DNA of 64,000 nt. Origin: Tenericutes bacterium ADurb.Bin087 (GTDB lineage: Bacteria; Bacillota_I; Bacilli_A; RFN20; CAG-826). Location: assembly GCA_002070905.1 (NCBI GenBank), contig MWEF01000006.1, forward strand, positions 1,821-65,820, in the 5' to 3' direction. Each line of letters begins with the position of its first letter. The first letter of the stretch is position 1. The notes beneath the pieces were generated by a model that searched no databases, was not told the DNA's origin, and saw only the letters and a list, made by a program, of their open reading frames with translations. Shown piece by piece: positions 8,349 through 62,409 of the stretch. A program made the translations under genes and the position numbers.

Positions 8349-8352
8349 ATAA

Positions 8353-24048: not shown

Positions 24049-24253
24049 CTTCATTTCTCCTTTTTTCATAAGTAAATTAACCAGAATAAGATAATCCTAT
24101 TTTGTTGCTTTTTACGTTTCTATGTTCACCTTAATTATACAAGGTTTAAGGGAAGAGACATGGAAATATAATATTTATTACCATGTAATAAGCAAGAATA
24201 TATGTTATTTTTCGAAAACTAAATCATAATTTCCAAACATCGTATTGAAATAC

Positions 24254-24487: not shown

Positions 24488-24567
24488 GTTCTTCTTTTGT
24501 TAAAAAATAAATAGTTTTACATCTTGTTAAATTTCAGTTAAAATTCATAGTGATAGGAGAAAATTTT

Positions 24568-45154: not shown

Positions 45155-46435
45155 TTAAGGTTTAAGTGTTCCTAGTGGAATCACTAAAACCCCGTCATCT
45201 CTTTTATAACCATATTTTGTCGCGGTAATAATAATTTTTAAATCAGGCAAGCGTAGTGGTGTTTGTTTTTCCTTTGCGTTATATTCTTTAATTAAACGCT
45301 CTAATTCAAGTAAGTGCTTAGCGCCTTCATCAATATCACTTTCCCCTAATTTAAACTCGAATAATGCAAAGCGGCCATCGTTAAGATGTAACACCGCATC
45401 AGCTTCGAGACCATATCTGTCATGGTAGTAAGAAAGCGAACCATCAAGTACTGAAGCATATATTTTTAAATCTCGCATACACAAAGATTCAAAGAGAAAT
45501 CCTAGTGTCTTAAAATCCTCGTTAAAATATTGCGGTGATATTCCTAGTGCTGCAACGGCAATTGAAGGATCCACTAAATTTCTTTTTTTCGATGAACGTA
45601 TCGCAGTACGCGATCGAATTGATGGATTCCATGCATCAATATCGTCGATGATATATAGTTTTTCTAATACTTGTATATAATCATTTAAAGTAGATTGACT
45701 TATATCAAAATTAGCATTTACATCACCCCATATCGTTTTTGTGGTCGCAAGGGTGCATATATTCCGACTATAGGATTTTAAAATCTCACGCGTCCATCGC
45801 TCATTTCTTTGAATATTATCAATGTTAGAAATATCAACATGACAAGTTTGTCTAAATAAATCCTTAGCAACTTCTAATTGTGACCGCGCTGTTTTATTAA
45901 AAAGAGTTTGTGGCCAACCACCGCGACATATTGCAAAAATAATATCATCAATTGTCATATCTGACACACAGCCTTTAAATGAATTAGGATCATTAAATAA
46001 ATTTTGTAGTGAAACGGTGCCATTTGATTCTTCACTTTCATATAAACTCATCGGATACATTTGCAGCCGACTGATACGCATTGTCCCAGTATGTGGAGTT
46101 TCAATGTCTTTTGACGATGAGCCAGTCAAGATGTATAACCCATTTTCTCGTTCATCATCAATCGATTTTCTAATTGCACCCCAAAGTTTTGGTGCATCTT
46201 GCCACTCATCAAATAAACGCGGTTTATCACCGATTAGTAATTTACTTGGTACATTATTAGCAACAGCAAGTAAATTATCGCGTTGATCCTCGTCTTGAAA
46301 TTCGACAACACTTTTCGCTCTTTGTTTAGCAGATGTCGTTTTCCCACAACCTTTAGGACCAACAATAAGTGTCGCACCAAAAGATTCTAACTTTAAATCT
46401 AATAAATCATCAATAATTCTTTTTTTATAATCCAT
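45155..46435 (-). CDS. AAA-type ATPase with C-terminal DUF4143-like domain
   Basis: Walker A GPKGCGKTT and Walker B PRLFDEWQ. The 426-aa architecture is typical of AAA_14 + DUF4143 ATP-binding proteins (from memory). Confidence 0.7.
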   Translation of the reverse strand: MDYKKRIIDDLLDLKLESFGATLIVGPKGCGKTTSAKQRAKSVVEFQDEDQRDNLLAVANNVPSKLLIGDKPRLFDEWQDAPKLWGAIRKSIDDERENGLYILTGSSSKDIETPHTGTMRISRLQMYPMSLYESEESNGTVSLQNLFNDPNSFKGCVSDMTIDDIIFAICRGGWPQTLFNKTARSQLEVAKDLFRQTCHVDISNIDNIQRNERWTREILKSYSRNICTLATTKTIWGDVNANFDISQSTLNDYIQVLEKLYIIDDIDAWNPSIRSRTAIRSSKKRNLVDPSIAVAALGISPQYFNEDFKTLGFLFESLCMRDLKIYASVLDGSLSYYHDRYGLEADAVLHLNDGRFALFEFKLGESDIDEGAKHLLELERLIKEYNAKEKQTPLRLPDLKIIITATKYGYKRDDGVLVIPLGTLKP

Positions 46436-46496
46436 AACAGACTCCTTGTTATTACAACAATAACATATTTAATAGTTTTAGTAAAGGCCTTTTACT

Positions 46497-46554
46497 ATGT
46501 TTTGTGGTGTTCTGTTGTTATGTTTTGTGGTAATTTGATAATGTCTTTTGTGAT
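46497..46554. repeat. direct repeats ATGTTTTGTGGT x2 plus a degenerate third copy
   Basis: Exact 12-mers at 46497-46508 and 46520-46531. ATGTCTTTTGTGAT at 46541-46554. Confidence 0.8.
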
Positions 46555-46604: not shown

Positions 46605-48371
46605 TCACTTATAATTAACAATTAACATCTCATTAGCGAAAGATACATTAGAAATACAGGCGCGACGATCAGGTGAAGGTTTATCAATATGGGTATGAAT
46701 TGGATAAACAATTTTAAGTTCACTTTCTTTTGTCAAAAAGAGTGAAGGATGACCTGGTCCTGAAGTTAAGCCATCAATTTTCTTAATAACTGGTCCATGC
46801 TTACACTTTTCGTATGGTCCTAGAACATTTTCACTGCGCGCAAGACCAACAGCGTGTGCTGGATTAATAAAATAGTTAGCGGTATACAATAAGTAATAGT
46901 ATCCATCGTGATAATATAGCGCCGGCCCTTCGTTACGATAAAATAAATCATCTGCATTATACTCCCAAGGTTCACTTGGTGTTAATAGTAACTTCGGTTC
47001 ACCAATTGTTTTTAAGAGTGTGTCGTCAAGTCTAACAATATATATCTCCGAAGTTTGCTGATTACCAACAAAATTCGTCGAACAATGCATTACGAAAAGT
47101 AAATATTTATGACCGTCTTCATCGATAAAGAGCGTGGCATCTGTTGTTGATTTCCCCTTTATATTAATAAGTGGACTCTCTTTATTTATATCCTTATACG
47201 GACCATCAATCTTCGCGGCTTTAGCAACATTAATATGCATTAAGTCATCATTACCACGCGCTGAATAAAACATATAAAACTCATTATTATACTTATAAAC
47301 TTCTGGTGCCCAAAAGTCCATATTTCCAAAGGAGTTAGTCTTGTCTAATACTGTCCCGCCTTCACTAAAATGATCAAGGTTTTCACCTTTATACACTACG
47401 AAGCGATCGCCACGCACGCGCGTGCCAAATAAATAATAAAAGCCATTTTCATAAATAATAAATGGATCACCAATTTTATTAACATTCGTAAAAAGAGTGC
47501 CGCCTACTTGTTTAGCTTTAATTACACCAAAGTGGCGCGTACGAAACTTACTTGGTGTCATATTATAAGTATCTTTAAAAGCTTTGATAAAAGAATACTT
47601 CGTACGAAACCCGACACTATTATAAATAACTTCTAACGTATAATTATGGTTTTCAAGCAATTGAACCGCTTTTTGCAGGCGATATTTCGTTAAATACATA
47701 CCAGGTGACACACCAAATTCTTCTTTAAAAGCATGGCAAAAGTGATAATACGAATAATTAGAGGTATTTGCCAAATCTTTGACATTAATATTGTTTTGAT
47801 AATTGATTTCAATATATTCTTTTACTTGCTCTAGCGCAGTGTTAATATTGTATTTTTGGTCACTTGTGACAATATTGAGCAATATTTCATAGATAATAGT
47901 CGAAAGTCTTATGTAGGACGGATTATTCTTGCGCAGTTCATCTAACGCTTCATTAAAGAGTGCACTGAATTCGTCTTTCTTGTCATGTAATACCGCGCTT
48001 TTATTACGCATCGCGAAAAGGCGATAAATAGTTTGAATGTTATTACCTCTAAAATAGCCAAATAAAGCGTGGCAAGGTAGGACACTATTTTGTTCAAACG
48101 TAAAACCAAGATTGCTATCAAGAAAAGCTAAATCCCCAGCTTTGAGTACAGCTTTAGTATTTTGATAATTTAGGATTACACTACCTTCAGTTACGAGCCA
48201 TATCGTATATTCAGACAAACCTTTTTTCGTGTTAGCGTAACCCTGTTCAAGCTCTAAAAAACCAATTTGCCGATAATTATATAAGAAAACAGAATCAATG
48301 ATTTCTTCTTGATGGTATATCTCCGTTTTAAGGCCAAAGCGTTGGATTACTTTATCAATCATCTCTAACAA
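46605..48371 (-). CDS. AraC-family transcriptional regulator fused to a GH43 glycoside hydrolase domain
   Basis: The N-terminus has a cupin-like sensor and an AraC HTH (..YYHFCHAFKEEFGVSPGMYLTKYRLQKA..FRTKYSFIKAFKDTYNMTPSKFR). The C-terminal ~300 aa carry GH43 blocks GDPFIIYENGFYYLFGT, FWAPEVYKYNNEFYMFY, DATLFIDEDGHKYL and NEGPALYYHDGYYYLLY. The start is TTG at 48371 or ATG at 48362. Confidence 0.8.
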   Translation of the reverse strand: MLEMIDKVIQRFGLKTEIYHQEEIIDSVFLYNYRQIGFLELEQGYANTKKGLSEYTIWLVTEGSVILNYQNTKAVLKAGDLAFLDSNLGFTFEQNSVLPCHALFGYFRGNNIQTIYRLFAMRNKSAVLHDKKDEFSALFNEALDELRKNNPSYIRLSTIIYEILLNIVTSDQKYNINTALEQVKEYIEINYQNNINVKDLANTSNYSYYHFCHAFKEEFGVSPGMYLTKYRLQKAVQLLENHNYTLEVIYNSVGFRTKYSFIKAFKDTYNMTPSKFRTRHFGVIKAKQVGGTLFTNVNKIGDPFIIYENGFYYLFGTRVRGDRFVVYKGENLDHFSEGGTVLDKTNSFGNMDFWAPEVYKYNNEFYMFYSARGNDDLMHINVAKAAKIDGPYKDINKESPLINIKGKSTTDATLFIDEDGHKYLLFVMHCSTNFVGNQQTSEIYIVRLDDTLLKTIGEPKLLLTPSEPWEYNADDLFYRNEGPALYYHDGYYYLLYTANYFINPAHAVGLARSENVLGPYEKCKHGPVIKKIDGLTSGPGHPSLFLTKESELKIVYPIHTHIDKPSPDRRACISNVSFANEMLIVNYK

Positions 48372-48409
48372 AATTTAACACTAATTTAACAAAATTTGCA
48401 ATAGATATC

Positions 48410-48425
48410 AGAACATATATGTTCT
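48410..48425. promoter_or_regulatory. perfect 16-bp palindrome in the divergent promoter region (candidate operator)
   Basis: AGAACATATATGTTCT. Upstream of it are three AATTT(A/G)(A/C)A direct repeats (48372-48401). Confidence 0.4.
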
Positions 48426-48454
48426 ACAATTTAATTGTGAAAGATTACTGCAAT

Positions 48455-51400
48455 ATGAAAAAAATGAAAATGGCCTTGTTAGGCGTTTTATTATTAGCGG
48501 GTTGTAACAACACTACTTCTTCACTTTCTTCAACTCCTGAAAATTCATTTTCAACTTCGGAAATAGCTAGTGAAGTCACTTCTTCAGCGGAAGATTCTGC
48601 CACAAGCGAAGATATTTCAATACCTGATCCCGTTTACCTTGATTACATTGTGCTTGATACAACGGCGGTCAAAACTGAATTTTACTACGATGAAACATTT
48701 ACTGCTGAAGGATTAATCGTCACCGCTTACTTCACTGATGACTCTTTTAGTGTTGTTAGTGACTTTGGTGTTAGCGCACCAACTTTCGAATTAGGATTAC
48801 GTGACGTTAGTGTATCTTATACATTTGAGAATATTACAAAAGTGGCAACTTATCAAATTGAGATTAAAGATCGCTTAGGTCCCACTGATTGTATTATCAA
48901 TAGTGTCTTTAATAAAGAGGTCAGCAATCAAGTCGTTTATTTAAATGAATCTGAATATATCGAATTTAAAGCACTGGAAAATTATGAAGATGTTTTAGAT
49001 GTTCAGGTCGCACTTAATTCTTATGTGACTAATGTTACTTATAATGCTGCTGACCGTCACTTGTCATGGCTAGTAACTGATGGAGTTTCTTCTGCTACTT
49101 ATTACGTAACGATTAATGTGCGTGAAGCCTTTGGTGCAAGCACTTTTGTCAGTGGATATGGTAGTAATGATTATATTACGTGGAGTTATTTATACGATGG
49201 TTACCATATTAATAAAACAAGTAGTTTTGGTTCGGCAACTTATTATTACGCTGATGGTAAAGCGATAATTGGGAAAAGTTATGAAGTTTCATTTAATGTT
49301 AGTCTTGATGAATTAGAAGAAAATGCTGAATTTAAAGTTGAACTGCTTTCGGAAACTGGGTATATGATTCGTTTTGTGTGTCGGGTCGCTAGTGATCTAA
49401 GTTTAACGTTCCTAAGTGACCGTTATGACGGTGAATTTATGAATTATCTTACCCACAAGGCCGCACTTGACAATAAAGCGATGCATTGGAAAATAATTGT
49501 GTTTAATAATGTTGCCCGCTGGATAGTGGATAACGAATTAATATATGAGCGCGCAGTTTATGAATCACGCGAATCATCATTTTGTATTTCTGCGGGTAAA
49601 CTAAGCGCGACAATTTCACAAATTGACCATTTGCTTGACACTAATACGGTAAGCGCAAACTTCAATTACTATAATGAAATCGCTAATACTTTAATTCCAA
49701 ACTTTGGCAAACTCACAAATGGTAATGGCTGGAATCTCGATAAAGTAATTTATGAAAATAATAACTATATTATCAATCAAGATTTAAGTTCTTCAAGTCG
49801 CACAGCAGGGGCGCTCTATACCCACGGCTCACAAGTTTATGGTAGTCGCTTTGGGGTGAAAGGTACTGTGCGAATTTATGATACAAAAACTACTGGCGGC
49901 GCTGCTTCAAAAGTAGAATTCCAAGTGTATATGAACGCTTCTAACTATATTAAGTTTTATCTTTATCGCTATTCCACGACAAATAACTCACTTTATATTG
50001 AAGGGATGAATAGTCAATTAGGAAAAATTCCATTAACTAGAATTATGAATAATACATTTGAGGCAGGTACCGATATTACACTAAATTATGAAGTATTATT
50101 TGATTTAGGTAATATTTACTTCGTTATTGATAATGAACTCGTCCATTATTATCAAAGTGGGTGGCGGAAAGCAGGCTACGCTTTTGGTGTTCTTCAATAC
50201 GCGAAAACGACTTGGAGTAACACGGAAATCTTTGATTACAATAATACATATGACGAAGCTTATTTATTTAAAGACCAATTAAATGCGTTACGTAATCGCA
50301 ATAATGCCTTCTTGTCTGATGACTATTTCGTTAACACAAGTAGCGATATGTATGTAAAGGAAGATTACACAACTGGTTTTAGTCAAGTAATGATTGAGGG
50401 TGAACCTTTAGCCAATGACTATTATGTCTTTGGTGGCAGACTTATTAATTATCAAGCGCGAGCGTGGGGCCAAGCGGAAATTACGATATATAGCGATGAT
50501 TATCATTCTTATCGTTATGTGTTAGAAAAAACAGATCGTGGTGAGTTCCAAGTGTTTACCGAATATAAAAATGTCGATGGCACGAATTGGTTAGGGCGTA
50601 AAAACGTCATTGCGCCTCATTCCCGCAATAAAAACTTTATGACTTTTGAAGTTGTCGTGAACGCTGATAGTGTTTATCTCTTAATTAATAATCTCATTTA
50701 CCATTCTTATGTTAGTGAAAATGACTTTATCCCGCGCTATGTGCAAATTGGTGGAAGAGCCACTTACGTTGCATTTTGTGATGGTTATTATAAATATATG
50801 GAGGCTAGCGAAATGAGTGATTACATTGCAACATTAAAAGAATACGAATATATTTCACCTTACACAAATAGGATTGATTCACTTGCGGCCAAATACGCTA
50901 GTGCGACGCCAGGCGGAACACTTTTCCTAGGTAGTTCAACGATTGACTTTTGGAGTACGTGGGCGACAGATTGTGCTCTTACTGACGGTGTTACTGGATA
51001 TAACGTCGGGATTGGTGGCACACTTGTTGAAGATTGGTTCTACGCTTACGATAAGCTTGTTAAACCATTTAACGCGAGTCGTTTTGTCATCTTCGTCGGT
51101 GGCAATAATATAAACGCTAACGGTGATACTGCCGAATACACCGCAAACTTACTTGATCAATTTATTCTGAAAATACATCAAGAATTCCCTGATTCAGAAA
51201 TATATTACATTTATTCATTACCAACACCTAGTAACTACGCTAACGGGGTTTATACATATGAATACGGACAATTAATCGTGCGGATGAAAGAAATTTGTGC
51301 AACAAGAGACTATGTTACTGGTGTCGATATGGAAGCAGCACTGAGTCAAGATGGTAATCCAATTCCTGGCTACTTCCTTAGTGACGGCATTCACATGAGT

Positions 51401-51463
51401 GAAGCAGGGTACGCTGCTTGGACTAAAGTTGTTAGAAAAGAAATTTTTAAATATTTAGATTAG
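48455..51463 (+). CDS. surface lipoprotein: Ig-like domain, three concanavalin/LamG-like modules, C-terminal SGNH esterase
   Basis: Lipobox LLLAGC and an S/T-rich linker. A Big_3-like segment follows (YLDYIVLDTT..GLIVTAYFTDDS..VSVSY). There are three repeats ending ..DNELIYE, ..DNELVHY and ..NNLIYHS. SGNH blocks are LFLGSSTIDFW, GIGGT, FVGGNNI and SDGIHMSEAGY. Confidence 0.75.
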   Translation: MKKMKMALLGVLLLAGCNNTTSSLSSTPENSFSTSEIASEVTSSAEDSATSEDISIPDPVYLDYIVLDTTAVKTEFYYDETFTAEGLIVTAYFTDDSFSVVSDFGVSAPTFELGLRDVSVSYTFENITKVATYQIEIKDRLGPTDCIINSVFNKEVSNQVVYLNESEYIEFKALENYEDVLDVQVALNSYVTNVTYNAADRHLSWLVTDGVSSATYYVTINVREAFGASTFVSGYGSNDYITWSYLYDGYHINKTSSFGSATYYYADGKAIIGKSYEVSFNVSLDELEENAEFKVELLSETGYMIRFVCRVASDLSLTFLSDRYDGEFMNYLTHKAALDNKAMHWKIIVFNNVARWIVDNELIYERAVYESRESSFCISAGKLSATISQIDHLLDTNTVSANFNYYNEIANTLIPNFGKLTNGNGWNLDKVIYENNNYIINQDLSSSSRTAGALYTHGSQVYGSRFGVKGTVRIYDTKTTGGAASKVEFQVYMNASNYIKFYLYRYSTTNNSLYIEGMNSQLGKIPLTRIMNNTFEAGTDITLNYEVLFDLGNIYFVIDNELVHYYQSGWRKAGYAFGVLQYAKTTWSNTEIFDYNNTYDEAYLFKDQLNALRNRNNAFLSDDYFVNTSSDMYVKEDYTTGFSQVMIEGEPLANDYYVFGGRLINYQARAWGQAEITIYSDDYHSYRYVLEKTDRGEFQVFTEYKNVDGTNWLGRKNVIAPHSRNKNFMTFEVVVNADSVYLLINNLIYHSYVSENDFIPRYVQIGGRATYVAFCDGYYKYMEASEMSDYIATLKEYEYISPYTNRIDSLAAKYASATPGGTLFLGSSTIDFWSTWATDCALTDGVTGYNVGIGGTLVEDWFYAYDKLVKPFNASRFVIFVGGNNINANGDTAEYTANLLDQFILKIHQEFPDSEIYYIYSLPTPSNYANGVYTYEYGQLIVRMKEICATRDYVTGVDMEAALSQDGNPIPGYFLSDGIHMSEAGYAAWTKVVRKEIFKYLD

Positions 51464-51474
51464 GAGGCAAAAAT

Positions 51475-53109
51475 ATGAAAAAGAAATTTTCGATCGCACT
51501 CTCATCGCTAGCGGTTATCGCGATGGCAGTACCGCTATGTCTTAAAGGACCTGCGCATAATGAAAAGGTCTACGCTAGTCCCGAAGTACTAGCGCTAAAA
51601 CAAAAGGTAGTCATGAACTACACTGCTGAAACTTACGGAATTGATGAAGGTGTCGATACCTTTAAATACGACGTTACAGGGCAAAGAGAACTTGCGGTAA
51701 GGTTAAATCTTCATACGATTTATAATCGAGACGGCTTAACCTTAACAGGCATTGGTTCACGACAAGGCGATAGTCACGTTGTAACTAATACTGCTGAATT
51801 CTTAAAAGGACCCGCTTACTATGTTGATGGTAATAAAAGCTTCAGTTATATTGATGAAACTGTCACAGCACTAACCTTTAGTTATTGGGTCAAAGGCAGT
51901 GCCGCTAATGACCAATTTGGGACCGCTACCAACACTCAATTTGGGCAAAGAGAAGGCGCTTTTTCCATCAGAAACTGGAACGCTGATGATAATATCTTGC
52001 GCTCTATTGACTTTTGTTATGGTTCCGTAATGTCTTATGAAGTTAATAGTAGCAACTACACTACTGACAGAAGTAACCAATGGATTACAATTGGGATGGT
52101 ACGTGAAGTTGGCAACATGACGCTATACAACGGGGGAACAAGCACTTCCTTTTATAATGACGGAACAGCTTGGGATTTACACACTTATACAATGGATCCG
52201 ACTAACGGATTAACAATGTATAAAAATGGGGTGAAATTAGTTAATTATTTACCAGCCGCTACAACTTACACTACAGGTTTAACTGGTGTTGTTCGCATTA
52301 GTGCCCAAGGGCTATTAGATATTTGTTTAAGTATTCTTCGATCAACACACGCTAACTTCCATGTGCACCGCGGTTATAAAGGAACGGGCACATATGTTTC
52401 TGCTTCAACAGCAGGGATTGCCCTTGATGAATTTAATATCTTTAAAGGTGCACTAAGTGACACTGAAGTTGAATTACTTTATAACTCATATAAAGGTGTT
52501 AAATATTATGATGGTGCGACTGTCTTAAAAACATATTCTGATTTAGTGGGCACTAATGTTCCTGCATATTCACCCGCTAAAGCAAACTTTGCGTTCTATC
52601 GCTGGGCAAGTGATGCTGAACTACAAAACCCAGCAACAGTAACGGCAATTCCAAGTGCGGACACTAATTTATATGCCGACTGGAAAAACGCCGCAAATGT
52701 CACTAATGGCGGGATTAACGCGGCAACTTCGTTTACTGATGCTTATATGCACATGGCCGATGCTGCTTTTAATACAGGTAACTATGTTGGCGAATGCGAT
52801 AAGAAAGACGGAATAACTGGTTTATCCCCATATGATGAAGCTAAAGCGGCATTTAATGCGATGAGTGATGAAGGGCGCTTTGCCTTTGTGACTGATGCTC
52901 AATTCACTAATGCTTATGCGCGATTACAAGCATGGGCAACCGCTAATGGCGATGTCTTCTCAGGCACCACAATCGTCGCAGCAGGTGGTTCACGCCTAGT
53001 TATCAATGAAAGTACCACTACTTCATTAATTCCACTTATTGCAATCGCCTTCGTGTTTATTACATTTGGATTTATCTACATTAACCGCAAAAAGAAAAGT
53101 TATAACTAA
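51475..53109 (+). CDS. exported LamG (Laminin_G_3-like) protein with a Listeria-Bacteroides (Flg_new) repeat and C-terminal TM anchor
   Basis: Signal peptide present. LamG-type ending LDEFNIFKGALSDTEVELLYNSY. Flg_new-like VKYYDG...FAFYRWASD...TNLYADW. C-terminal IPLIAIAFVFITFGFIYI followed by NRKKKSYN. AGGAGG RBS. Confidence 0.7.
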   Translation: MKKKFSIALSSLAVIAMAVPLCLKGPAHNEKVYASPEVLALKQKVVMNYTAETYGIDEGVDTFKYDVTGQRELAVRLNLHTIYNRDGLTLTGIGSRQGDSHVVTNTAEFLKGPAYYVDGNKSFSYIDETVTALTFSYWVKGSAANDQFGTATNTQFGQREGAFSIRNWNADDNILRSIDFCYGSVMSYEVNSSNYTTDRSNQWITIGMVREVGNMTLYNGGTSTSFYNDGTAWDLHTYTMDPTNGLTMYKNGVKLVNYLPAATTYTTGLTGVVRISAQGLLDICLSILRSTHANFHVHRGYKGTGTYVSASTAGIALDEFNIFKGALSDTEVELLYNSYKGVKYYDGATVLKTYSDLVGTNVPAYSPAKANFAFYRWASDAELQNPATVTAIPSADTNLYADWKNAANVTNGGINAATSFTDAYMHMADAAFNTGNYVGECDKKDGITGLSPYDEAKAAFNAMSDEGRFAFVTDAQFTNAYARLQAWATANGDVFSGTTIVAAGGSRLVINESTTTSLIPLIAIAFVFITFGFIYINRKKKSYN

Positions 53110-53184: not shown

Positions 53185-54630
53185 TCACTGGTAAACAACA
53201 TTGAATACATAATCAATATATAAAGTGTAACCAGCTGCGTTAAGGTTATAGTTATTTTTATATAAATTCGTTTTAATTGAGTTATCGTCATTAATAAATA
53301 ATGGTAATGTGTTAATAAAATTACACCAAGTTTTATCTGCTGAATATGCACTTAAATAATTATTAAATGTAATTATTGAAGTTGTTCTCCCTGGATAGTT
53401 TTTAATTGGATTAACCGACACAACATAAATATTTGTATCTGGTAATAATGAATGGATTTCATCAAGGAAAGCAATATATTCATCTTTCATCTCTTCAATT
53501 GATGTTTTCCATAGTGTTATATCTTTACCACCAATGTTAAAAATGACATTTTTAGGCTTATGTTTAGTAACGATACTTACATATTCTAGCCAATCTTCTA
53601 AATACCAATCAACATTAGCAATTACATAAGAATTCTTACCATCTAAATCGGTGTTTGCGGAAAACCAGTTTGTGAGTGAATAATACGAATCTCCGACAAA
53701 TAAATAATCAACATCAATGTTTTCATTAATTCCAAATGTTCCGTCTTCCCGTAAAATATAATAGCTCCACGCATTAAGGAAATCGGCTTCAATCATATTG
53801 CCCCAACTAGTAGCGCTTGGACTATTTGAGTTTCGCATGGCCACGGCAAAAGAAAGATTACCAAGTGCAGCTTCATATGTTGTACCGATTGCACTATATG
53901 GGATGTAAAAAGAAACTTCGTAACCATCATATCCATCAAGAATTAGAGCGCGTTCTACTGCCGAAGCCATAATCCCATCTTGCAGTGGACTGTTAGCACT
54001 CATTGCATTTGAGGTTGTAAAAATATTCATATATGAATTTCCGGCTGCGTCACACAGCACTTTAATGGCTTCATTTGTATTATAACCAGCGGGATTAGTT
54101 GATGGGGTTGCCGCAACAGCTATTTCGACATTATCATTGTAACCTGTCGTATTCGCAGTAAAGATGATTTCATCGGTGACGCACGCCACAACACTTAAAC
54201 CATTTTCTTCATAATCAAATGACCAATAACTCTTTGCTTCCATCGCATCAACACGTGCATAACTTAAAAATGCACCTCGTAATTTACTTTCGATTGGCAG
54301 CCAAGCAGCATAAAATGTTGTATCTTTTTCTAGTTCAAATGGAAAAGTAACTACTTCATCACTTAAATCCGCTAATAAATGCCACCCCGCAAAGTCAAAA
54401 CCTTCTTTTGTTGTTTCAGGTTCAGTCGTAATTACATTGGTGGTGTATGGCGCGATTTCACTACCACCATTTGTCACAAAAGTAACATAATAATAAGCAT
54501 CACCATACTTGACACTAAGTTCTTCGACACTGCTACTTTCGACACTACTAGCGGAAGAACCACAACCGACAAGTAACAAGGATAACACAACTAAAATTAA
54601 ATTTTTCTTGTTCATAGGCTTAAAACACAA
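53185..54630 (-). CDS. surface lipoprotein: Flg_new repeat, beta-sandwich (CBM-like) domain, degenerate SGNH domain
   Basis: Lipobox LLLVGC. Flg_new-like YYVTFVTNGGSEI..GFDFAGWHL..TTFYAAW. SGNH block I is FVGDSYY, but block V reads NNYNLNAAGY, with no Asp or His. TTG start at 54630 is 9 nt behind GGAGG (alternative ATG at 54615). Confidence 0.7.
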   Translation of the reverse strand: MCFKPMNKKNLILVVLSLLLVGCGSSASSVESSSVEELSVKYGDAYYYVTFVTNGGSEIAPYTTNVITTEPETTKEGFDFAGWHLLADLSDEVVTFPFELEKDTTFYAAWLPIESKLRGAFLSYARVDAMEAKSYWSFDYEENGLSVVACVTDEIIFTANTTGYNDNVEIAVAATPSTNPAGYNTNEAIKVLCDAAGNSYMNIFTTSNAMSANSPLQDGIMASAVERALILDGYDGYEVSFYIPYSAIGTTYEAALGNLSFAVAMRNSNSPSATSWGNMIEADFLNAWSYYILREDGTFGINENIDVDYLFVGDSYYSLTNWFSANTDLDGKNSYVIANVDWYLEDWLEYVSIVTKHKPKNVIFNIGGKDITLWKTSIEEMKDEYIAFLDEIHSLLPDTNIYVVSVNPIKNYPGRTTSIITFNNYLSAYSADKTWCNFINTLPLFINDDNSIKTNLYKNNYNLNAAGYTLYIDYVFNVVYQ

Positions 54631-56563
54631 TATTGTGTTCCTCCATTATTTCAATTATTCCTTCGCAGATCAAATTCATCCATGTCGATAATGTTTTAGT
54701 GTCCATATGCGTCCACATTTCCCACCCATCAGGATATTCAAGCATTCTATTATAAACAAAGTCATATGTATCAATATAATGGACGTAATCTAACTCACTA
54801 GCGTATTTTTTCGCCCATTCATTAATTCTTTCAACCGTTTGATACATTTCCGTGCGACCGGGAAGCGGGGAGGAATTAACAATTGCAATCACACAATCAG
54901 GCAATTGTTCATGAACTTTTTTTACATATTTATCGGTCAAAGCGGCAATATCTTTTTCCGACATGCTCCAATAAGCTTGGTCATTACTTGTTAAATTAAA
55001 GCATAAAATCTTCGGAGCATAACCAATCACTAATTGATCTGCGTAATGATAGTAGTTGTATGTAGATCCACCAGCGACTGCATTATTAATTAATGGTAGT
55101 CCCCGTGCCGCAAAATCACTTTCAGCAGTGTAAGCTAACGAGAAGTTTGAATTGCCATTAAAGACAATTTTTCCGTGCGGGGCATTATATGTTCCGTCTG
55201 TCATTGCTAGTAAATTAATCGCATGAAAATATTTTGTATTGTCATAAGAAGATATTAAATATTTAGCGTAATAATCTTTGTCTGTTTGATGGTTAACTTT
55301 TGTGGGATCAACTGGATTATATTTAGTGTTTGAATCACTCCATGCCACAAAATTATGCTTATAACCGTCCGTGTCGATTGCATAATCGACGACTGGTTCA
55401 TCTTCCGCTAATAAAACTTTACCCTTCACTACTTTTCGTGTGATAACTTCTTCACCATTTAATCCTAAATGTAAATTAACATTACACACATTAAGCTCAT
55501 CCACTAGTGTAGCAGTTGCAATAATTTCTGGGTCAGTTATCTCAATTACATGATCGCATTTAGCGCAAATGCCAACACATTCATTGCTACTATTTTTGTA
55601 ATAAACATAAGTATGATGTTTGTTAGTAATATTGGTAAAATACGTTTGACCACAAGCACAGCGATACACATCCGCCCCATCTTGTGTACAACTTGCGGGT
55701 ATTGTATGTAACAATGCAAAATTATGATTACATGTCGCGCCTTTTTTAGCAAAAATCAGACTATCAAAATAAACTTTTGATTGACTATCATCTTCTTTAA
55801 ACCCCCTTGTTATAACGTGTGAGTAATTAAGATATTCGTAGTCATTAGTGACGAAAGCATCTTCCGTCATCATATAATTTGTTTCTGGACGCCCATTCCA
55901 ACCAAACGAAGTAAATGGCATATATAACCAACCTCTAAAATGTTCTTTAACTTGGACAGTTTTATTCATAATCACTGTGTTTTTAAATGATGATGACATA
56001 TAGTCATAATAGTAAGCTGTTCTACCATCCACTAGATAATAATGCGAAAAGTGCCCGCCTCTCTCGCCTTCATTCCACAAATAGGTTGTTACTGGTGGTT
56101 CGGTAGGTGAGTTCATTAAAACAAGGCCAATACCTAAACCAATTGTCTTTACATTACTGCGGGCGTCAGGTTCAGAAGCATCAAAATACATTAAGAGACC
56201 ATCAGCATCGCTAATCGCAATATTTTCTAATTTTGTTTGCAGTCTTAAAAGCGGACTCGTTCCACCACCTGGTAAACCAATATGATAACGCGTACCAAAT
56301 TCATCACTAACATAGCCATAACTTTTAGTAATTGATTGGGTAGTGTAGTCACTAATATCAATGTAACCAACATCAGTACCATTAAATTCAAAGGTGGCAA
56401 CAGTCGTATACTTATAGTCACCTGGTAAAGAACTAGGGGCAGTATAATAGTGCGTGTCTAAATAAAGTTGAGCAGCGTTAACTTTATCTTTAAATGGTTT
56501 GACGCTAATCGTGCCTATTATTAAGAAAAATAAAGCACTCAAAAGTATTCGCTTCTTTTTCAT
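54620..56563 (-). CDS. exported protein: beta-sandwich domain, Cys/His-rich module, Flg_new repeat, SGNH-like domain
   Basis: Signal peptide present. The Cys-rich CNHNFALLHTIPASCTQDGADVYRCACGQTY...ECVGICAKCDH is followed by Flg_new-like ..HNFVAWSDS..DYYAKY. C-terminal blocks are VFNGNSNF, AVAGGST, LTSNDQ and WTHM. The start overlaps the upstream stop (TAATG). Confidence 0.7.
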   Translation of the reverse strand: MKKKRILLSALFFLIIGTISVKPFKDKVNAAQLYLDTHYYTAPSSLPGDYKYTTVATFEFNGTDVGYIDISDYTTQSITKSYGYVSDEFGTRYHIGLPGGGTSPLLRLQTKLENIAISDADGLLMYFDASEPDARSNVKTIGLGIGLVLMNSPTEPPVTTYLWNEGERGGHFSHYYLVDGRTAYYYDYMSSSFKNTVIMNKTVQVKEHFRGWLYMPFTSFGWNGRPETNYMMTEDAFVTNDYEYLNYSHVITRGFKEDDSQSKVYFDSLIFAKKGATCNHNFALLHTIPASCTQDGADVYRCACGQTYFTNITNKHHTYVYYKNSSNECVGICAKCDHVIEITDPEIIATATLVDELNVCNVNLHLGLNGEEVITRKVVKGKVLLAEDEPVVDYAIDTDGYKHNFVAWSDSNTKYNPVDPTKVNHQTDKDYYAKYLISSYDNTKYFHAINLLAMTDGTYNAPHGKIVFNGNSNFSLAYTAESDFAARGLPLINNAVAGGSTYNYYHYADQLVIGYAPKILCFNLTSNDQAYWSMSEKDIAALTDKYVKKVHEQLPDCVIAIVNSSPLPGRTEMYQTVERINEWAKKYASELDYVHYIDTYDFVYNRMLEYPDGWEMWTHMDTKTLSTWMNLICEGIIEIMEEHNIVF

Positions 56564-59500
56564 TAGTCTGCTCCCTCCTCAAGTTCTGTTTTAATTCTAA
56601 CAAGCACACCAGTAAAGGTGTCTGTTTTATCAAACACATAATTTGTATTCATGAATTCGGTGTCGTTTGTCCCAGTCAGATTACTCTCTAAATAAAGGAT
56701 TCTCGCTAATGGATTTTCGCTTTCAAAACAATTTAGTGCACTATAAATGGTAATTATTCGCACTAATTCAAGGGCATTATCTGAAATGTAATATATATTA
56801 CAATTTGTCGTTGTCCCCGAATTACTTGTCCCATAAATTGCGCGTGGATTCGTATTTCCATTAATTACACCTGCATTCGTACAGTTTGTAATCGTAGTGT
56901 AATTACCGCGCCCAAGAATTCCGCCGGCATCACTATGTTCAACACTAATTGTGCCAGTTGAAACACAATTATCAATGATTTTAGCGCTATTAGATTCACT
57001 ATAGCCAACAATCCCGCCAGCCATGTAATAAGCTGACACGTTACCCGCATTAAAACAGTTAGTAATTGTAGTAGCGTAAATTGAACCAACAATCCCGCCC
57101 ACGCCACGCCAAAGTTTTGACTCTTTACCGCTATTGCCACTTACCTCACCATAATTCGCGCAGTTAGTGAGATTAGTTCCAGTGCCAATTCTACCAACAA
57201 TGCCACCAATATGACCAGAGTAGGTAGCTAATTCGCCTGCTTGCGTTGGTGCGTGGCCTTCAACTTTTCCAAAGTTATAACAATTTTCGATGCCGGTAAT
57301 AGTTGCGCCTTCACGATAAAAACCAACAATCCCGCCTAGACCAGAAACACCACTTATCGTCCCGCGATTAACACAGTTAAGAATTGATGTTCCCGCGATT
57401 GCATAACCAAACCCAACAATCCCGCCGACACATTGTCCACTTGATGTAAACGCTGATGCATATGTTGAAGTTATTAGGCCATTATTATGACAATTAATAA
57501 TTTTCCCAACCTTATTAATAACATTATCACCATTAATTGCGGTAATGCCACCGATGTAAATACCATCACCGATTACTTCAGCTTCATTAACACAATTTTC
57601 AATCGTACCAAAATTATAAACACAGATTCCACCGACCCGATGATAACCTTGAATAATACCTTTTAATGTTAAGTTTTTAATAATTCCTTCATTTGTGCCA
57701 AATAAGGCAATATTTATACTACTGTTTTTAGCCGCATTAATAATGGTGATTGAATGATTATTACCATCAAACACACCTTTAAATGGCCGTGCTTTTGTAT
57801 TTTCGGTATTGCCAATATTGATTGAACTTGAAACACTAATATCATTTTCTAAACGATAGTAAACGTTTGCTTGTGTGTAATTATCATCATTACTTTCACA
57901 TCTTGCTTTCAAAAGTTCAAAATCTTGTGTCGTTTTAATAATAAATGGATCATCTTCAAAGCCTGTACCACCACTAAAATAGCTCGAAAATGCTTGAATT
58001 GTAGAAGTTTTTACCAAATCTGGAATATCAAATTCTTGGGTTGGATTATTCGGATCATAGTAATTAATATTACGAATTAATCCCGCTCCGTTAGTCGAGG
58101 CTACTAAATAACTATATGCTGATGTCGCATTAATAACGTCAAGTGCTCCATAATTTTCATTAAAGGCATAAGTACCATTATTAGCGCGACCAATAATCCC
58201 ACCAGCGTGCGGTTCAGTACTTTCGCTATAAATTAATGCACCAGGCATATTAATCGAGTATTTAACAATAGTAGCATCACTCCCACTTACGTATCCTGCA
58301 ATACCACCAACTTGTTGATTACCAATTACTTTACCGTGATTGCGCGAATATGAAATTTTAGAAGCGCTATAGATTGAACCAGCAACACCACCTATTCCGC
58401 CCCAGCGCGAAGGATTATCTCTTGTACCATGTCCCTTAACCTCACCATAATTCTCGCAGTAATTAACTTCATTAGTGCTGCCTAACATCCCAACGACACC
58501 GCCAATATGGACTGCTTCTAAGTCATTAGTGTCAAAACAAGAAACATCAGCGTAATTAATACAATTTTCAATATTTAAATACCCTTTGTTTGACCAACCA
58601 ACAACGCCGCCAACACCGTAATATCCTTTGACATTCGCGCCTACTTTGTTTGTGCAGTTAATAACATTTCCGCTACTTTGATAACCAACAACGCCGCCTG
58701 CATAATATGCACTTTCGCCAGTCGTTACAACGCCTTCATTATGACAATTAATCACATCAAAATAGGTTGTGGAAGTAACGCCACCCGCGTACCTATCTTC
58801 AGCGTGCACCGCTCCATAATTAATACAATTTTCGAGTTTTGCAACTGAACTAGCGTTATCTGATACTGCTCTAGTACCATTTAGCCCGCTAATTCCGCCA
58901 ACACAAACATTACCAGTTATATCCCCTTCATTAATTGAGTCATATACTGGTAATACATTTGAACCAAAAATACCACCAACAGAGTGATTCCCTGTAACAT
59001 TTCCAAAGTTTTTATTGCCACGATTCGCGTATAAATCAAGGTCTTCATCTTTATACATACCATACTTATAAATCGTATAACCTAAGCCACATATACCACC
59101 AATGTACTGCGTTTTTGGACCTGACACAATAACATCGCCATAGTTTTCGTTATTTGTTAAAACACCAAGACTTTCACCACATATCCCGCCAAAATACATC
59201 GCATTTTCATTAAGTGCATTTGTATCATTACCCGTAATAGTTCCGTAATTTTTACAACCTTTAATTTCTGATTGCTGACGCTTAACAATCATTTCGTCAC
59301 TACGCGCAATGCCACCATTAATGCCCCCAACATAAGCATCACCATGAACATTAGCTTTATTAATACAATTTTCGATAAGTGCGTTATTATAAATACCGCC
59401 ACACACACCCGCGGCAAATGAGTGGGAATAGGCGTGACCTTCAGGAATACTGACGCGGACACTACCTTCAACCGTGACATTTTTAATCACACCACTTGCA

Positions 59501-60132
59501 AAGCCAAATAGTCCTTGCCATGAATCAGTGGTATCAATAAATAAATCAGAAACTGTCTTATCATTCCCGTCATAAATCCCTTCAAAAGGCACGCCAAAAG
59601 TGCCAATTGGTGTCCAATATGGAAATTCTGCAAGGGATATATCATTAATTTGTTTAAAATACTTACTAGTAAAATCTTTATAATCTAAAACGGCCACACT
59701 TAATTTCTTTAAATCAGTCGCCGTTTCAATTAAATAGGGACTACTTTCACTACCATTACCCTTTAAATCAAATTCATAAGTTATGATGACTTCATTTGGA
59801 TCTAAAATGACTAATCTAGTGGAAATAGTTTTATCGTGAGCGGAAGCAACAATATTAGTTGTTCCGACCGCTAAAGTTGTTAAAGTACTACCACTAATAG
59901 TAGCAATTGCATTATTTTCACTACTATAATTTATTTCCGCATATTCATACGATGTTGTCACAATATTATTTAAATCAAAAGTACTATTTATATTTAATTT
60001 AATCTCATCCTGGACAAACTTTAAAACATGACTCGGCCCTATAATGCTGCTTTCTTCACTTGATGAAGATGAACATGAAGAAAGAAACAGTGAAACCATT
60101 GTTAATACTATTAGTAGTGGCCTTTTTTTCAT
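56563..60132 (-). CDS. large surface lipoprotein with a Big_2 domain and two GLUG-repeat (beta-helix) lobes
   Basis: Lipobox FLSSC. Big_2-like segment (..AIATISGSTLTTLAVGTTNIVAS..). Roughly 20 repeats of the (V/I/A)GG(I/V)xG type. Each lobe opens with a GSESSPYLIETATDLKKL or GFEDDPFIIKTTQDFELL motif. Start taken as the ATG at 60132 (MKKRPLL). Confidence 0.75.
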   Translation of the reverse strand: MKKRPLLIVLTMVSLFLSSCSSSSSEESSIIGPSHVLKFVQDEIKLNINSTFDLNNIVTTSYEYAEINYSSENNAIATISGSTLTTLAVGTTNIVASAHDKTISTRLVILDPNEVIITYEFDLKGNGSESSPYLIETATDLKKLSVAVLDYKDFTSKYFKQINDISLAEFPYWTPIGTFGVPFEGIYDGNDKTVSDLFIDTTDSWQGLFGFASGVIKNVTVEGSVRVSIPEGHAYSHSFAAGVCGGIYNNALIENCINKANVHGDAYVGGINGGIARSDEMIVKRQQSEIKGCKNYGTITGNDTNALNENAMYFGGICGESLGVLTNNENYGDVIVSGPKTQYIGGICGLGYTIYKYGMYKDEDLDLYANRGNKNFGNVTGNHSVGGIFGSNVLPVYDSINEGDITGNVCVGGISGLNGTRAVSDNASSVAKLENCINYGAVHAEDRYAGGVTSTTYFDVINCHNEGVVTTGESAYYAGGVVGYQSSGNVINCTNKVGANVKGYYGVGGVVGWSNKGYLNIENCINYADVSCFDTNDLEAVHIGGVVGMLGSTNEVNYCENYGEVKGHGTRDNPSRWGGIGGVAGSIYSASKISYSRNHGKVIGNQQVGGIAGYVSGSDATIVKYSINMPGALIYSESTEPHAGGIIGRANNGTYAFNENYGALDVINATSAYSYLVASTNGAGLIRNINYYDPNNPTQEFDIPDLVKTSTIQAFSSYFSGGTGFEDDPFIIKTTQDFELLKARCESNDDNYTQANVYYRLENDISVSSSINIGNTENTKARPFKGVFDGNNHSITIINAAKNSSINIALFGTNEGIIKNLTLKGIIQGYHRVGGICVYNFGTIENCVNEAEVIGDGIYIGGITAINGDNVINKVGKIINCHNNGLITSTYASAFTSSGQCVGGIVGFGYAIAGTSILNCVNRGTISGVSGLGGIVGFYREGATITGIENCYNFGKVEGHAPTQAGELATYSGHIGGIVGRIGTGTNLTNCANYGEVSGNSGKESKLWRGVGGIVGSIYATTITNCFNAGNVSAYYMAGGIVGYSESNSAKIIDNCVSTGTISVEHSDAGGILGRGNYTTITNCTNAGVINGNTNPRAIYGTSNSGTTTNCNIYYISDNALELVRIITIYSALNCFESENPLARILYLESNLTGTNDTEFMNTNYVFDKTDTFTGVLVRIKTELEEGAD

Positions 60133-60230
60133 AGTTCTCACTTCCTTTTTATATAGCACTATCACGGAAAGAGTTGCCGAGCACTTAGCAACTCTCCCCG
60201 TGATTAAGATAGTGTCACATTAATAATTTA

Positions 60231-62201
60231 TTAGATTGTTCTTTTTCTTCTTGAAACGAAGACAAAGCCTAAGGCTGCAAGTGCAGCAAAACCTAACATC
60301 ATAAAGATATTTGCTTGATTGCTAAATAAGGATCTTTGTAATCCTGCACCACCGCCACCACCACTGGTGTAGGCTAAAATGTAGTCCGCAGCATCAACAT
60401 AGGTTCCAGTTACTCCGGCATATCTACCATAATACGTGAGTTGATTTAATAGCGCTAAATCATCCGCAGAAAGACTAGCGCGTAATGCCGCTAATTCGGT
60501 TCGATAAGAGTATGACGTACATTCAAATTCACGAACATACATAATAAAGTTTTTAACATCAGCACTCGCTGAAACAGCAAGTCTTGTATGTAAACCAGTC
60601 GTTCCAACGTCTTCTTTAGGTGTACATAAGGCAATTGAATAATTATTTAGTGGATTAATTACATCATAACTGCGTACGCCAGCAAGAGAACCAATATATA
60701 CTGCAGCTGAGCCCGTGTAAGCAGAAATTAAATCACCCGCTGATAAGAAACCTTGAATTTCTGTTTGCCCATCATAAGTTATGGTTGCAGTGGCTTGTTT
60801 ATGTAGCCCAACAGCACCACCTATATAAGCAGCAGTGTCTCCCGTATGTTCAATAGTTCCAGTATTAGCACAATTAATAATCTTTGTTACTCCATGATCT
60901 GAGTGACCATTAATTCCCCCGGCACCATATGCATTTGCGGAATCAAGGACGATTTTGCCATAATTTGAACAATGGATATATTGAGAGCCGTCATAAGAAA
61001 ATCCACCAATTCCACCTATATCACCACGAACACTACCACTTCCAGTAGCGTAAGTTGATTTGATAATTCCAAAATTAGCACAGTTTGTAATCGTAGTTCC
61101 CGTATTACTAATGCCATCACCATTAATTGCTACGATACCACCACCAAACTCTTTATTAACCGTTATATTTCCATGGTTTTTACAATTATCAATTGATGCA
61201 CCATTTCGTGAATAACCAGCAATACCGCCGACATTACCCTTAGCAATGCCCACTACCGATAAAGTAGAATAATTTGTACACTTAGAAATTGAAGCACCGT
61301 TTTCACTATAATAACTAATCCCAGCCATATAACCAATGTTGGTAGGATATGTCGCTAATGCAGATGATTTAGAATTGCTAATTACCGCATTTGCTCCGCT
61401 ATTTAAATGTGCTATTCCGCTTGAATAAACACTTAGTCCAGCTGGATCTACACCAATTGTTCCGTTATGTGTACAATTAGTAATCGTTCCATAATTCTTT
61501 GTAGCGATACCAGCAGCTCCATTAGTTGAGGCAGTAACTGTTGTTGTTCCATTATTTACACAGCCATCAATTAATGCTCCTGCTTTATTGTCATTACAAA
61601 TGCCAGCAGGTATTTTTGCTTTAACTATTCCATTATTTGCACAATTTAGTACTTTACCTTTATTTGCAACATTTTCATAAACAAATCCCGCTGCATAGTC
61701 ACCAGTTGCGGTAACACTAACCGAACTTGTACAATCTTCAATCTTCCCATTATTATATGTACAAAGCACAGCAGAATAATTTGACCCTGTTATCGAACCA
61801 GCAAAATTAGTGTTTTTGAAAACACCATTATCACCAATGTTTCTAAATAGATTCGTACACGTTGAAGTTAAATTAGCGTTTAATGTAATAGTATGACCTT
61901 TACCATCAAATGTACCACAGAAAAAGCTTCCATTTAGTGGCTTTGAAGTAATCGTATAACTTACATCTGCCGCTAGTTCTATTAATTTTCCTTCCCAGCA
62001 TTTAGTGTTATCATGTGTAGATTGAGCGTTTATATCGTCAATAAACGTCGCAAATTCAGCATTTGTAGAAATTACTAAATCTGGTATTGGTGCAGCTGCT
62101 ATGCGCTCCGTTCTCATTTTAGCGGTTGAGACAGCAATGGTAGTCACACATAAGAGTCCAAAACATAAGGCTAAAAATGAGCGTCTGTGATTTTTTTTCA
62201 T
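60231..62201 (-). CDS. GLUG-repeat (beta-helix) surface protein with C-terminal TM anchor
   Basis: Signal peptide present. About 10 xGGIxG-type repeats (VGGIAGYS, GGGIVAIN, IGGIGGFS, AGGINGHS ...). The C-terminus is GGGGAG...IFMMLGFAALAALGFVFVSRRKRTI. Strong RBS AAAGGGAGGG. Confidence 0.75.
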   Translation of the reverse strand: MKKNHRRSFLALCFGLLCVTTIAVSTAKMRTERIAAAPIPDLVISTNAEFATFIDDINAQSTHDNTKCWEGKLIELAADVSYTITSKPLNGSFFCGTFDGKGHTITLNANLTSTCTNLFRNIGDNGVFKNTNFAGSITGSNYSAVLCTYNNGKIEDCTSSVSVTATGDYAAGFVYENVANKGKVLNCANNGIVKAKIPAGICNDNKAGALIDGCVNNGTTTVTASTNGAAGIATKNYGTITNCTHNGTIGVDPAGLSVYSSGIAHLNSGANAVISNSKSSALATYPTNIGYMAGISYYSENGASISKCTNYSTLSVVGIAKGNVGGIAGYSRNGASIDNCKNHGNITVNKEFGGGIVAINGDGISNTGTTITNCANFGIIKSTYATGSGSVRGDIGGIGGFSYDGSQYIHCSNYGKIVLDSANAYGAGGINGHSDHGVTKIINCANTGTIEHTGDTAAYIGGAVGLHKQATATITYDGQTEIQGFLSAGDLISAYTGSAAVYIGSLAGVRSYDVINPLNNYSIALCTPKEDVGTTGLHTRLAVSASADVKNFIMYVREFECTSYSYRTELAALRASLSADDLALLNQLTYYGRYAGVTGTYVDAADYILAYTSGGGGGAGLQRSLFSNQANIFMMLGFAALAALGFVFVSRRKRTI

Positions 62202-62409
62202 ATTTTTCCCTCCCTTTCTTTAAGTAAAAAATATTATGAAACTATGTTGTCTTGCGACAAATAATTCTAAATCCTGTAAGTCTTTTTATTTTTTTCTTCA
62301 TAGATTTCTAACCATTATTATTTTTTATCTTATGCACATATTTATTATATTTTACAAATATATTAATTAGAATGTTTTATATTACAAAAAACATGTATAA
62401 TATTAAAGG

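Follow-up and report, generated by a model that had tools for sequence, protein, structure and literature searches.

What a glycosidase fold does on a transcription factor is the question raised by a gene in a 64,000-nucleotide stretch of contig MWEF01000006.1 from Tenericutes bacterium ADurb.Bin087 (this whole stretch is referred to below as the window). The gene lies on the minus strand (46605..48362) and encodes an AraC/XylS-type regulator that carries a complete glycoside hydrolase family 43 (GH43) domain behind its DNA-binding domain. According to our preferred reading, to which we assign a probability of about 0.55, the gene product is a one-component regulator of the AraC type, located in the cytoplasm, in which the GH43 propeller acts as carbohydrate sensor and which controls a divergent operon of surface esterase/adhesin genes and probably its own promoter. 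Judged from its residues, the sensor of the window protein is possibly still an enzyme. A one-component system set by binding or hydrolysis of an imported sugar had been suggested in the first-pass annotation of this DNA. The architecture and the divergent arrangement behind that suggestion were recovered, and indirect support came from the ancient origin of the fusion, a ratio of nonsynonymous to synonymous substitution rates (dN/dS) of ~0.1 in the GH43 part and a conserved neighbourhood; the emphasis on catalytic competence has to be qualified.

The listed open reading frame (ORF) extends over 46605..48371 on the minus strand and comprises 588 aa, its upper end being a TTG codon at 48371. 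Translation almost certainly starts at the ATG at 48362 and not at the upstream TTG, resulting in 585 aa (stop codon 46605-46607), because NCBI and other gene callers begin there and because the TTG frame of the syntenic relative L017 meets a TAA ahead of the ATG. Residue numbers, including those of domain bounds and catalytic positions, refer to the 588-aa version with the TTG start. The three parts expected within this frame were all found, and a Pfam domain scan agreed with the nucleotide ranges predicted for them. Their order is an AraC cupin-like N-domain, a double helix-turn-helix (HTH) AraC domain, a short linker and a five-bladed GH43 propeller.

The N-terminal AraC-type cupin-like region (residues 4-170; 47862..48362, minus strand), putatively involved in dimerisation or ligand binding, was matched weakly by the Pfam profile AraC_binding (residues 50-164, E 1.6e-5, 25.1 bits at a cut-off of 21.1). 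Moreover, the AraC half aligns end to end, at 25% identity, with a plain 288-aa AraC protein encoded at 62410-63276 of the same window. The AraC/XylS DNA-binding domain with its two helix-turn-helix motifs (residues 175-282; 47526..47849, minus strand) was recognised by HTH_18 (residues 200-279, E 7.7e-19, 68.2 bits at a cut-off of 33.6) as well as by HTH_AraC (56.4 bits, cut-off 26.6) and aligns to residues 12-112 of MarA. It is joined by a conserved linker of 15 aa (residues 283-298; 47478..47525, minus strand; …V-IKAKQVGGTLFTN…), which is the same in all homologous fusions, to a complete five-bladed beta-propeller (residues 299-588; 46608..47477, minus strand). This last part matched Glyco_hydro_43 (PF04616) over residues 301-579 with an E-value of 9.7e-50 (170 bits, cut-off 32.2), covering positions 11-283 of the 288 in the profile. 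Its best match in the PDB was 4QQS (E 8e-60, ~37% identity). In the AlphaFold (AF2) model the predicted local distance difference test (pLDDT) score exceeds 90 over the propeller and reaches ~80-90 over the HTH domain, and the GH43 part superimposes on 4QQS and 3KST with a Foldseek target TM-score (template modelling score) of 0.88. The model is poor at the N-terminal 115 residues, where the alignment is shallow (pLDDT <50 in the N-domain; predicted TM-score, pTM, 0.63). Neither a signal peptide nor a transmembrane segment was detected in a hydropathy scan (maximum KD19 1.06), which bears out the earlier expectation of a cytoplasmic location; the protein is thus predicted to be cytoplasmic.

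The protein is identical to NCBI entry OQC10870.1 ('Tenericutes bacterium ADurb.Bin087'), which is recorded as 'HTH-type transcriptional activator Btr', a name that makes no mention of the GH43 domain. Btr is the bacillibactin transport regulator and consists of an AraC HTH and a siderophore-binding domain. We rejected this assignment as an annotation-transfer error, since there is no full-length match: the NCBIfam Btr equivalog NF049932 reached 51.9 bits where 900 are required, and the match is confined to the HTH region (residues 151-276). A promoter-like match inside the gene (47590-47562), shortly before the GH43 part, was likewise set aside as probably due to chance because its -10 element abuts the Met271 codon and the junction lacks a conserved in-frame start.

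The fusion is not restricted to this contig. The identical 585-aa protein was present in the NCBI metagenome-assembled genome (MAG) and in two independent Logan assemblies, and four variants with 85-88% identity from other assemblies or runs had exactly the same length and junction. The first-pass annotation had suggested a survey of the architecture. Two surveys extended the family to more distant relatives. A profile built from five fusion proteins and run over 1.84 billion representative proteins recovered the combination of AraC N-domain, HTH and GH43 only in three clusters formed at 50% identity, namely P0001 (the window protein), P0092 and P0093. The other matches with several aligned stretches (P0094, P0096, P0098, P0102, P0103, P0184, P0198 and P0215) turned out to be tandem or extended GH43 proteins and not regulators. 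A tblastn scan of one genome per GTDB species added two loci, one in a ruminal Bacilli MAG (L006) and one in a rumen Erysipelotrichaceae MAG (L007). An apparent HTH-GH43 junction in two Bacteroidota loci of the same scan (L011, L012) was traced to Rob-like AraC-GyrI proteins without GH43. The L006 locus bears two paralogous AraC-GH43 fusions (1461-3224 and 7956-9716), which are 55% identical and lie ~5 kb apart with a lipoprotein operon between them; the second, behind which a gene for a cytoplasmic GH2 lies, retains W-N-E-G as a fully canonical acid motif.

Altogether, ~14 distinct fusion sequences were collected from ENA, NCBI and Logan data of rumen and digester samples. They fall into three deep lineages with 33-41% overall identity, found in digester and rumen Bacilli and in Erysipelotrichaceae MAGs, and all share the junction …AKQ…(L/T)FTN(V/I)..IGDPF…. 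An assembly artefact at the junction, which had been raised as a possible objection, is excluded by its recurrence in independent assemblies and in these ~14 homologues. One and the same junction across the lineages indicates a single ancient gene fusion that has been retained since. No description of an AraC-GH43 or HTH-GH fusion was found in the searchable literature, which misses most subscription journals, and databases were not queried by architecture. The architecture and the comparative pattern thus appear to be undescribed so far, though the protein is public under a wrong name, and other, independent fusions with different GH43 subfamilies or GH families may exist.

Evidence on the role of the propeller comes from its catalytic residues. 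In 4QQS, D17 is assigned as the base, D126 as the pKa modulator and E195 as the catalytic acid or 'nucleophile', while W72 forms the platform for the -1 sugar and E75 and H256 are metal ligands; the enzyme shows weak pNP-arabinofuranosidase activity (PMC4356313). Its subfamily, GH43_33, has one characterised member, which is weakly active (PMC5798181; PMC4356313). Alignment to 4QQS with verified codon coordinates revealed that the window protein retains D302, D411, E481, W354, E357 and H541. All three catalytic positions claimed in the first-pass annotation are therefore present: the general base D302 in the GDPF motif (codon 47466..47468; 4QQS D17), the pKa-modulating D411 in the TDA motif (codon 47139..47141; D126) and the general acid E481 in the NEGP motif (codon 46929..46931; E195), all on the minus strand. 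The two aspartates are invariant in all fusions. R479 (codon 46935..46937, minus strand) occupies the position of the +1-subsite tryptophan (4QQS W193) and is an arginine in all fusions except the second L006 paralogue (L006b).

At the general acid position the fusions differ. Glutamate is present in the window protein and its close variants, in P0092/L006a and in L006b, aspartate in P0093, and glutamine in five homologous fusions (P0002-P0005 and L007), so that the acid is replaced in 6 of ~14 sequences. Other hallmark residues drift as well: the metal-ligand histidine H541 is a serine in P0004 and P0005, and the -1 platform tryptophan W354 is a cysteine in P0242 and P0244, both near kin of the window protein. 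Apart from two or three, virtually all of the ~239 non-fused GH43 domains from the same searches possess the acid glutamate, and where it is clearly absent, the domain is the N-terminal one of a tandem protein and has aspartate at this position. An apparent threonine in the acid column of 57 Bacteroidota homologues proved to be a one-residue alignment shift (RRWTEGS); the glutamate is present. Exchange of the acid glutamate for glutamine is the standard route to substrate-trapping GH43 mutants, and the PDB entries 5ZQX and 5ZQS, which were among the Foldseek matches, are E186Q mutants. The pattern of glutamate, aspartate and glutamine therefore fits a domain that is conserved for sugar binding with hydrolysis being optional. 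The catalytic competence expected from the window sequence is thus consistent with its own intact residues, but does not extend to the clade, within which the catalytic machinery is relaxed while the GH43 domain as a whole stays conserved. The window protein sits on the side of the clade that still looks catalytic. Across the fusions, ligand binding and not hydrolysis looks like the conserved function of the domain.

Conservation of the whole domain was assessed by comparison with the two syntenic relatives L016 and L017 (dS 0.5-0.9). The dN/dS ratios were 0.07-0.14 for the N-domain, 0.04-0.05 for the HTH domain and 0.08-0.11 for the GH43 domain (the latter at dS 0.5-0.7), indicating that all three domains are under purifying selection. 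The GH43 module is therefore preserved by selection and is not a decaying remnant. The reading frame is continuous and dN/dS is low across the AraC/GH43 junction. Among ten diverse fusions, 10 of 170 residues were invariant in the N-domain, 26 of 115 in the HTH domain and 57 of 290 in the GH43 domain. Conservation of the propeller is on a par with that of the HTH domain and far above that of the N-terminal region, which is the least conserved part with 17-25% identity across the clade.

Which sugar would be recognised is less clear. The best PDB match is the sole characterised member of GH43_33, but with only ~37% identity the window domain is a candidate for this subfamily. As GH43_33 has a single, weakly active characterised member, the ligand is not confidently predictable, and an arabino- or xylo-oligosaccharide is a guess.

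The putative targets were sought in the gene neighbourhood. Without exception, in the window and in the examined relatives, the fusion gene is transcribed away from an operon that encodes secreted proteins or lipoproteins, among them ones with SGNH, DUF4886 and SASA esterase folds or GLUG motifs. In the window, the first putative target gene (48455..51463, plus strand) encodes a lipoprotein of ~1000 aa (MKKMKMALLGVLLLAGC…) whose C-terminal domain is an SGNH/GDSL esterase, and is syntenic in L004, L016 and L017. The second (51475..53109, plus strand), syntenic in L016/L017, encodes a secreted protein of 544 aa, which is anchored in the membrane by its C-terminus and in which no Pfam domain scored above threshold. 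The divergence from an SGNH-esterase/LamG operon described at first is thus correct with respect to the divergent SGNH/GDSL lipoprotein, but Pfam recognised no LamG domain in proteins of the window. Neighbours in the rumen and ENA relatives are lipoproteins with DUF4886 (SGNH-like), SASA esterase, LamG-like plus GDSL, and Big_2/Big_3 domains, and furthermore GLUG-motif proteins homologous to the 1200-aa and 656-aa proteins of the window (56563-62201). A hidden Markov model comparison of the relatives' lipoprotein family with the 1014-aa and 544-aa proteins of the window gave no homology. It is the type of neighbour, surface esterase or GLUG proteins, that is conserved, and not strict orthology of the first gene.

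The fusion gene and the operon are separated by a divergent regulatory region of 92 bp (48363..48454), which is ~90% identical in L016/L017 with synonymous sites diverged by ~47%. Promoter-like hexamers are present on both strands. The fusion gene is preceded by the putative promoter TTGCAA-17-TTAAAT on the minus strand. An 11-bp direct repeat, TAACAAAATTT, occurs twice on the plus strand at a distance of 21 bp. Copy 1 (48366..48376) overlaps the -10/start region of the putative promoter of the fusion gene, and copy 2 (48387..48397) abuts the TTGCAA/TAGATA -35 candidates of the plus-strand promoter. These are the only two exact copies in the 64-kb window. Of 20000 shuffles of the region, only 48 gave an exact 11-bp direct repeat at 21-bp spacing, and no more than six comparable repeats were counted in the 64 kb. 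We infer from their arrangement that the repeats are candidate AraC-type half-sites. The same region contains a perfect 16-bp palindrome, AGAACATATATGTTCT (48410..48425), within the spacer of the plus-strand promoter candidate TAGATA-17-TACAAT. The palindrome is largely retained in L016/L017 (GAACA…TGTT core) and is possibly the operator of another dimeric regulator.

The rumen relatives share a conserved promoter block of their own, TTGACT…TACAAT-ATTTTGCT-ATG/GTG, which ends a few bases ahead of the start codon (L001 ~1190-1235; L002 ~3940-3984; L003 ~1955-2001). The fusion genes, including that of the window (48362-48402), lack a Shine-Dalgarno sequence, and their promoter-like -10 elements lie only ~5-10 nt before the start codon, which suggests leaderless or near-leaderless mRNAs.

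Taken together, these data can be arranged into a mechanism, of which we infer the nature and binding of the ligand, its allosteric coupling to the HTH domain, the site on the DNA and the direction of regulation. An ancient gene fusion would have placed a complete GH43_33-like propeller directly behind the DNA-binding domain of an AraC/XylS regulator. The N-terminal cupin-like region would serve dimerisation and might provide a second ligand site. The double HTH would bind the 21-bp-spaced TAACAAAATTT repeats in the divergent region, so that the bound regulator would occlude its own promoter, the -35 and -10 elements of which are also spanned by the repeats, and would be positioned at about -45/-66 of the promoter for the lipoprotein/SGNH-esterase operon (48455-53109). 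An imported pentose-containing oligosaccharide or glycoside would be bound in the GH43 pocket formed by D302, W354, D411, E481 and H541, and occupancy of the pocket would be passed on through the short conserved linker to the HTH domain, which would turn on the genes for the surface esterases and adhesins. With its catalytic triad intact, the window protein would probably also hydrolyse the ligand, which would make it a 'trigger enzyme' with a self-limiting signal. Binding would nevertheless be favoured over turnover as the selected function because sister lineages replace the acid or other hallmark residues. A bolder version, which we offer tentatively, assigns different roles to the variants: E-type proteins would be working glycosidases, in which substrate occupancy activates the HTH domain and hydrolysis resets it (a catalytic timer with GTPase-like logic), and Q/D-type proteins would be pure slow-off receptors.

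Several observations weigh against a GH43-based sensor of this kind. The window protein has a full AraC cupin-type N-domain under purifying selection, which could be the true sensor. Catalysis may matter in the lineages that retain the acid glutamate, which is kept in 4 of 10 diverse fusions and in 5 of 5 members of the window protein's own 90% cluster. The nearest characterised enzyme, 4QQS, has a weak and ill-defined activity, which leaves the ligand class uncertain, and the AF2 model yields no reliable inter-domain geometry in view of its pTM of 0.63 and the N-domain pLDDT <50. On the DNA side, the genome is A/T-rich like the TAACAAAATTT repeats themselves, and copies with one mismatch show no enrichment; the repeats are absent from the promoters of the rumen relatives, and no operator shared between the window and the relatives was found. 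Finally, no sugar transporter or pentose catabolic gene adjoins the fusion gene, the GH2 and MFS genes of the window being >20 kb away.

The first of these points leads to the alternative that survives best, although we regard it as unlikely. An active GH43 exo-glycosidase would liberate a monosaccharide such as L-arabinose or xylose from imported oligosaccharides, and the AraC cupin domain would sense it as in E. coli AraC, the fusion placing production of the inducer beside its receptor. Such product sensing is consistent with the completeness of the N-domain, which scores above the AraC_binding cut-off, aligns to a plain AraC and is under purifying selection, and with the intact catalytic triad, tryptophan platform and metal ligands of the window protein. 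However, in-cis production of an inducer could not operate clade-wide, given that the acid glutamate is lost in 6 of ~14 fusions, H541 in two and W354 in two. Moreover, no part evolves faster than the N-domain (17-25% identity, 10 invariant residues), and this would not be expected of a conserved monosaccharide pocket.

Somewhat harder to defend is an uncoupled 'Rosetta-stone' fusion, in which the stop codon between a regulator gene and an adjacent gene for a cytoplasmic GH43 was lost and the two halves are co-expressed without signalling between them. Close stand-alone relatives of both halves do exist. P0142 is a 277-aa AraC protein with the same N-terminal motif, and P0095 is a 301-aa cytoplasmic GH43 protein, which ends in …IDYK like the fused domains and is as similar to them as they are to one another. 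On its short contig of 1 kb (L020, 1-26), an upstream ORF in the same frame stops one codon before the P0095 ATG (…TCT TAA ATA ATG), placing it one stop codon from a fusion and demonstrating how easily fusion or fission might occur. The pre-fusion arrangement was not found at P0142, the nearest stand-alone AraC, which has no adjacent GH43 gene. Against mere co-expression, fusion and short linker have been retained across lineages with 33-41% identity and in duplicated paralogues, no fission products were seen within the clade, and a domain that was only an enzyme would hardly be expected to lose its acid while the remainder stays under purifying selection. The last alternative, a merger of separate AraC and GH43 genes by a frameshift or a chimeric contig, has nothing in its favour beyond the metagenomic source of the genome and is refuted by the identical protein in independent assemblies, the four 85-88% variants of identical length, the same-junction homologues from ENA, NCBI and Logan, and a continuous frame with low dN/dS, so that its probability is negligible.

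If the GH43 domain is indeed the sensor, the fusion would represent a compact cytoplasmic sugar-responsive switch made from a carbohydrate-active enzyme fold, a new input domain of the AraC family and a natural conversion of a glycosidase into a receptor, with E-, D- and Q-type versions available for comparison. Should the more tentative timer/receptor version be true, it would be the first glycoside-hydrolase-based cytoplasmic one-component system, complete with natural 'E-to-Q trapping mutants'. A sensor of this type would also explain how uncultured, wall-less or reduced rumen and digester Bacilli adjust the expression of surface esterase/adhesin-like proteins to the products of plant-glycan breakdown, and might be a source of parts for biosensors of hemicellulose-derived oligosaccharides. 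For genome annotation, the protein exposes a systematic misannotation ('Btr') and is a warning that counts of carbohydrate-active enzymes in such genomes would include non-catalytic regulatory GH43 domains.

Further features of the window were recorded in passing. The operon opposite the fusion gene is followed by a convergent block of surface-protein genes (53185-63276), comprising SGNH plus List-Bact repeat (53185-54630), SGNH (54620-56563) and GLUG-motif (56563-60165 and 60231-62201) proteins; the second, plain AraC gene (62410-63276, plus strand) ends the block and is divergent from it. In the rumen MAG loci L006 and L007, too, homologues of the GLUG proteins are encoded beside the fusion genes. 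Directly downstream of the fusion gene, an AAA_14/DUF4143 ATPase gene (45155-46435, minus strand) matches PDC-S01, a candidate defence family in PADLOC (E 3e-53). The gene is missing from the otherwise syntenic L017 and looks like a strain-specific insertion. Between the fusion stop codon and this ATPase gene, a 12-bp exact direct repeat, TATGTTTTGTGG, with 23-bp spacing is located at 46496-46530 and is one of only six such repeats in the window. Elsewhere, an 815-aa protein (24550-26997, plus strand) consists of an MFS transporter domain (46-383) fused to DUF2804 (478-815), and a GH2 gene (22357-24069, minus strand) and tRNA-Asp/Phe genes lie just upstream of it. Two tandem paralogues of MgtE-family magnesium transporters (458 and 444 aa; 1341-4052, plus strand) each contain MgtE_N, CBS and MgtE domains.

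Comparison with known systems places the fusion between several of them. Like E. coli AraC and other plain AraC/XylS regulators, it has an N-terminal cupin-type domain followed by a double HTH of ~100 aa, and its gene is divergent from the putative target operon. AraC binds araI1-I2, two direct-repeat half-sites beside the -35 element, and the geometry of the TAACAAAATTT repeats resembles that of I1-I2, with the sites here being candidates deduced from their arrangement. In contrast to E. coli AraC, the HTH domain is not C-terminal but followed by a glycoside hydrolase propeller of 300 aa, and the N-domain is weakly conserved across the clade. A further domain behind the HTH is also found in the AraC-family proteins Ada, where it is an enzyme, and Rob, where it is a GyrI-like ligand domain; Ada was among the NCBIfam matches of the fusion protein at the HTH level. 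However, the GH43 fold is unrelated to both the alkyltransferase and the GyrI-like domains, and the signal would be a sugar instead of alkylation damage or bile salts/dipyridyl. Trigger enzymes such as PutA and BirA unite a metabolic enzyme and DNA binding in one polypeptide, so that availability of the substrate sets transcription. The fusion likewise joins an enzyme fold and a predicted DNA-binding domain in a single polypeptide, but catalysis appears dispensable in part of its clade; a glycoside hydrolase trigger enzyme of this type was not found in the searchable literature, from which most subscription journals are missing. HoGH43 (HoAraf43; 4QQS, ACL70803.1) of Halothermothrix orenii, a single-domain GH43 protein of the intracellular type, shares the catalytic and metal-binding residues of the propeller. 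Unlike the fusions it is a stand-alone enzyme, and its +1-subsite Trp193 is replaced by arginine in the window protein and most of its relatives. The remaining parallel is the anti-sigma factor RsgI6 of Clostridium thermocellum, whose GH10 sensing module has very low activity with binding retained, which was read as an adaptation to binding (PMC4711584). RsgI6 is a transmembrane protein that detects polysaccharide outside the cell and passes the signal to sigma-I through proteolysis, whereas the fusion protein is predicted to be soluble and cytoplasmic, possesses its own predicted DNA-binding domain and carries GH43 instead of GH10. In both, a glycoside hydrolase module would serve as the carbohydrate sensor of a transcription control protein, and the E-to-Q and E-to-D variants of the fusion clade parallel the sensing module of RsgI6.

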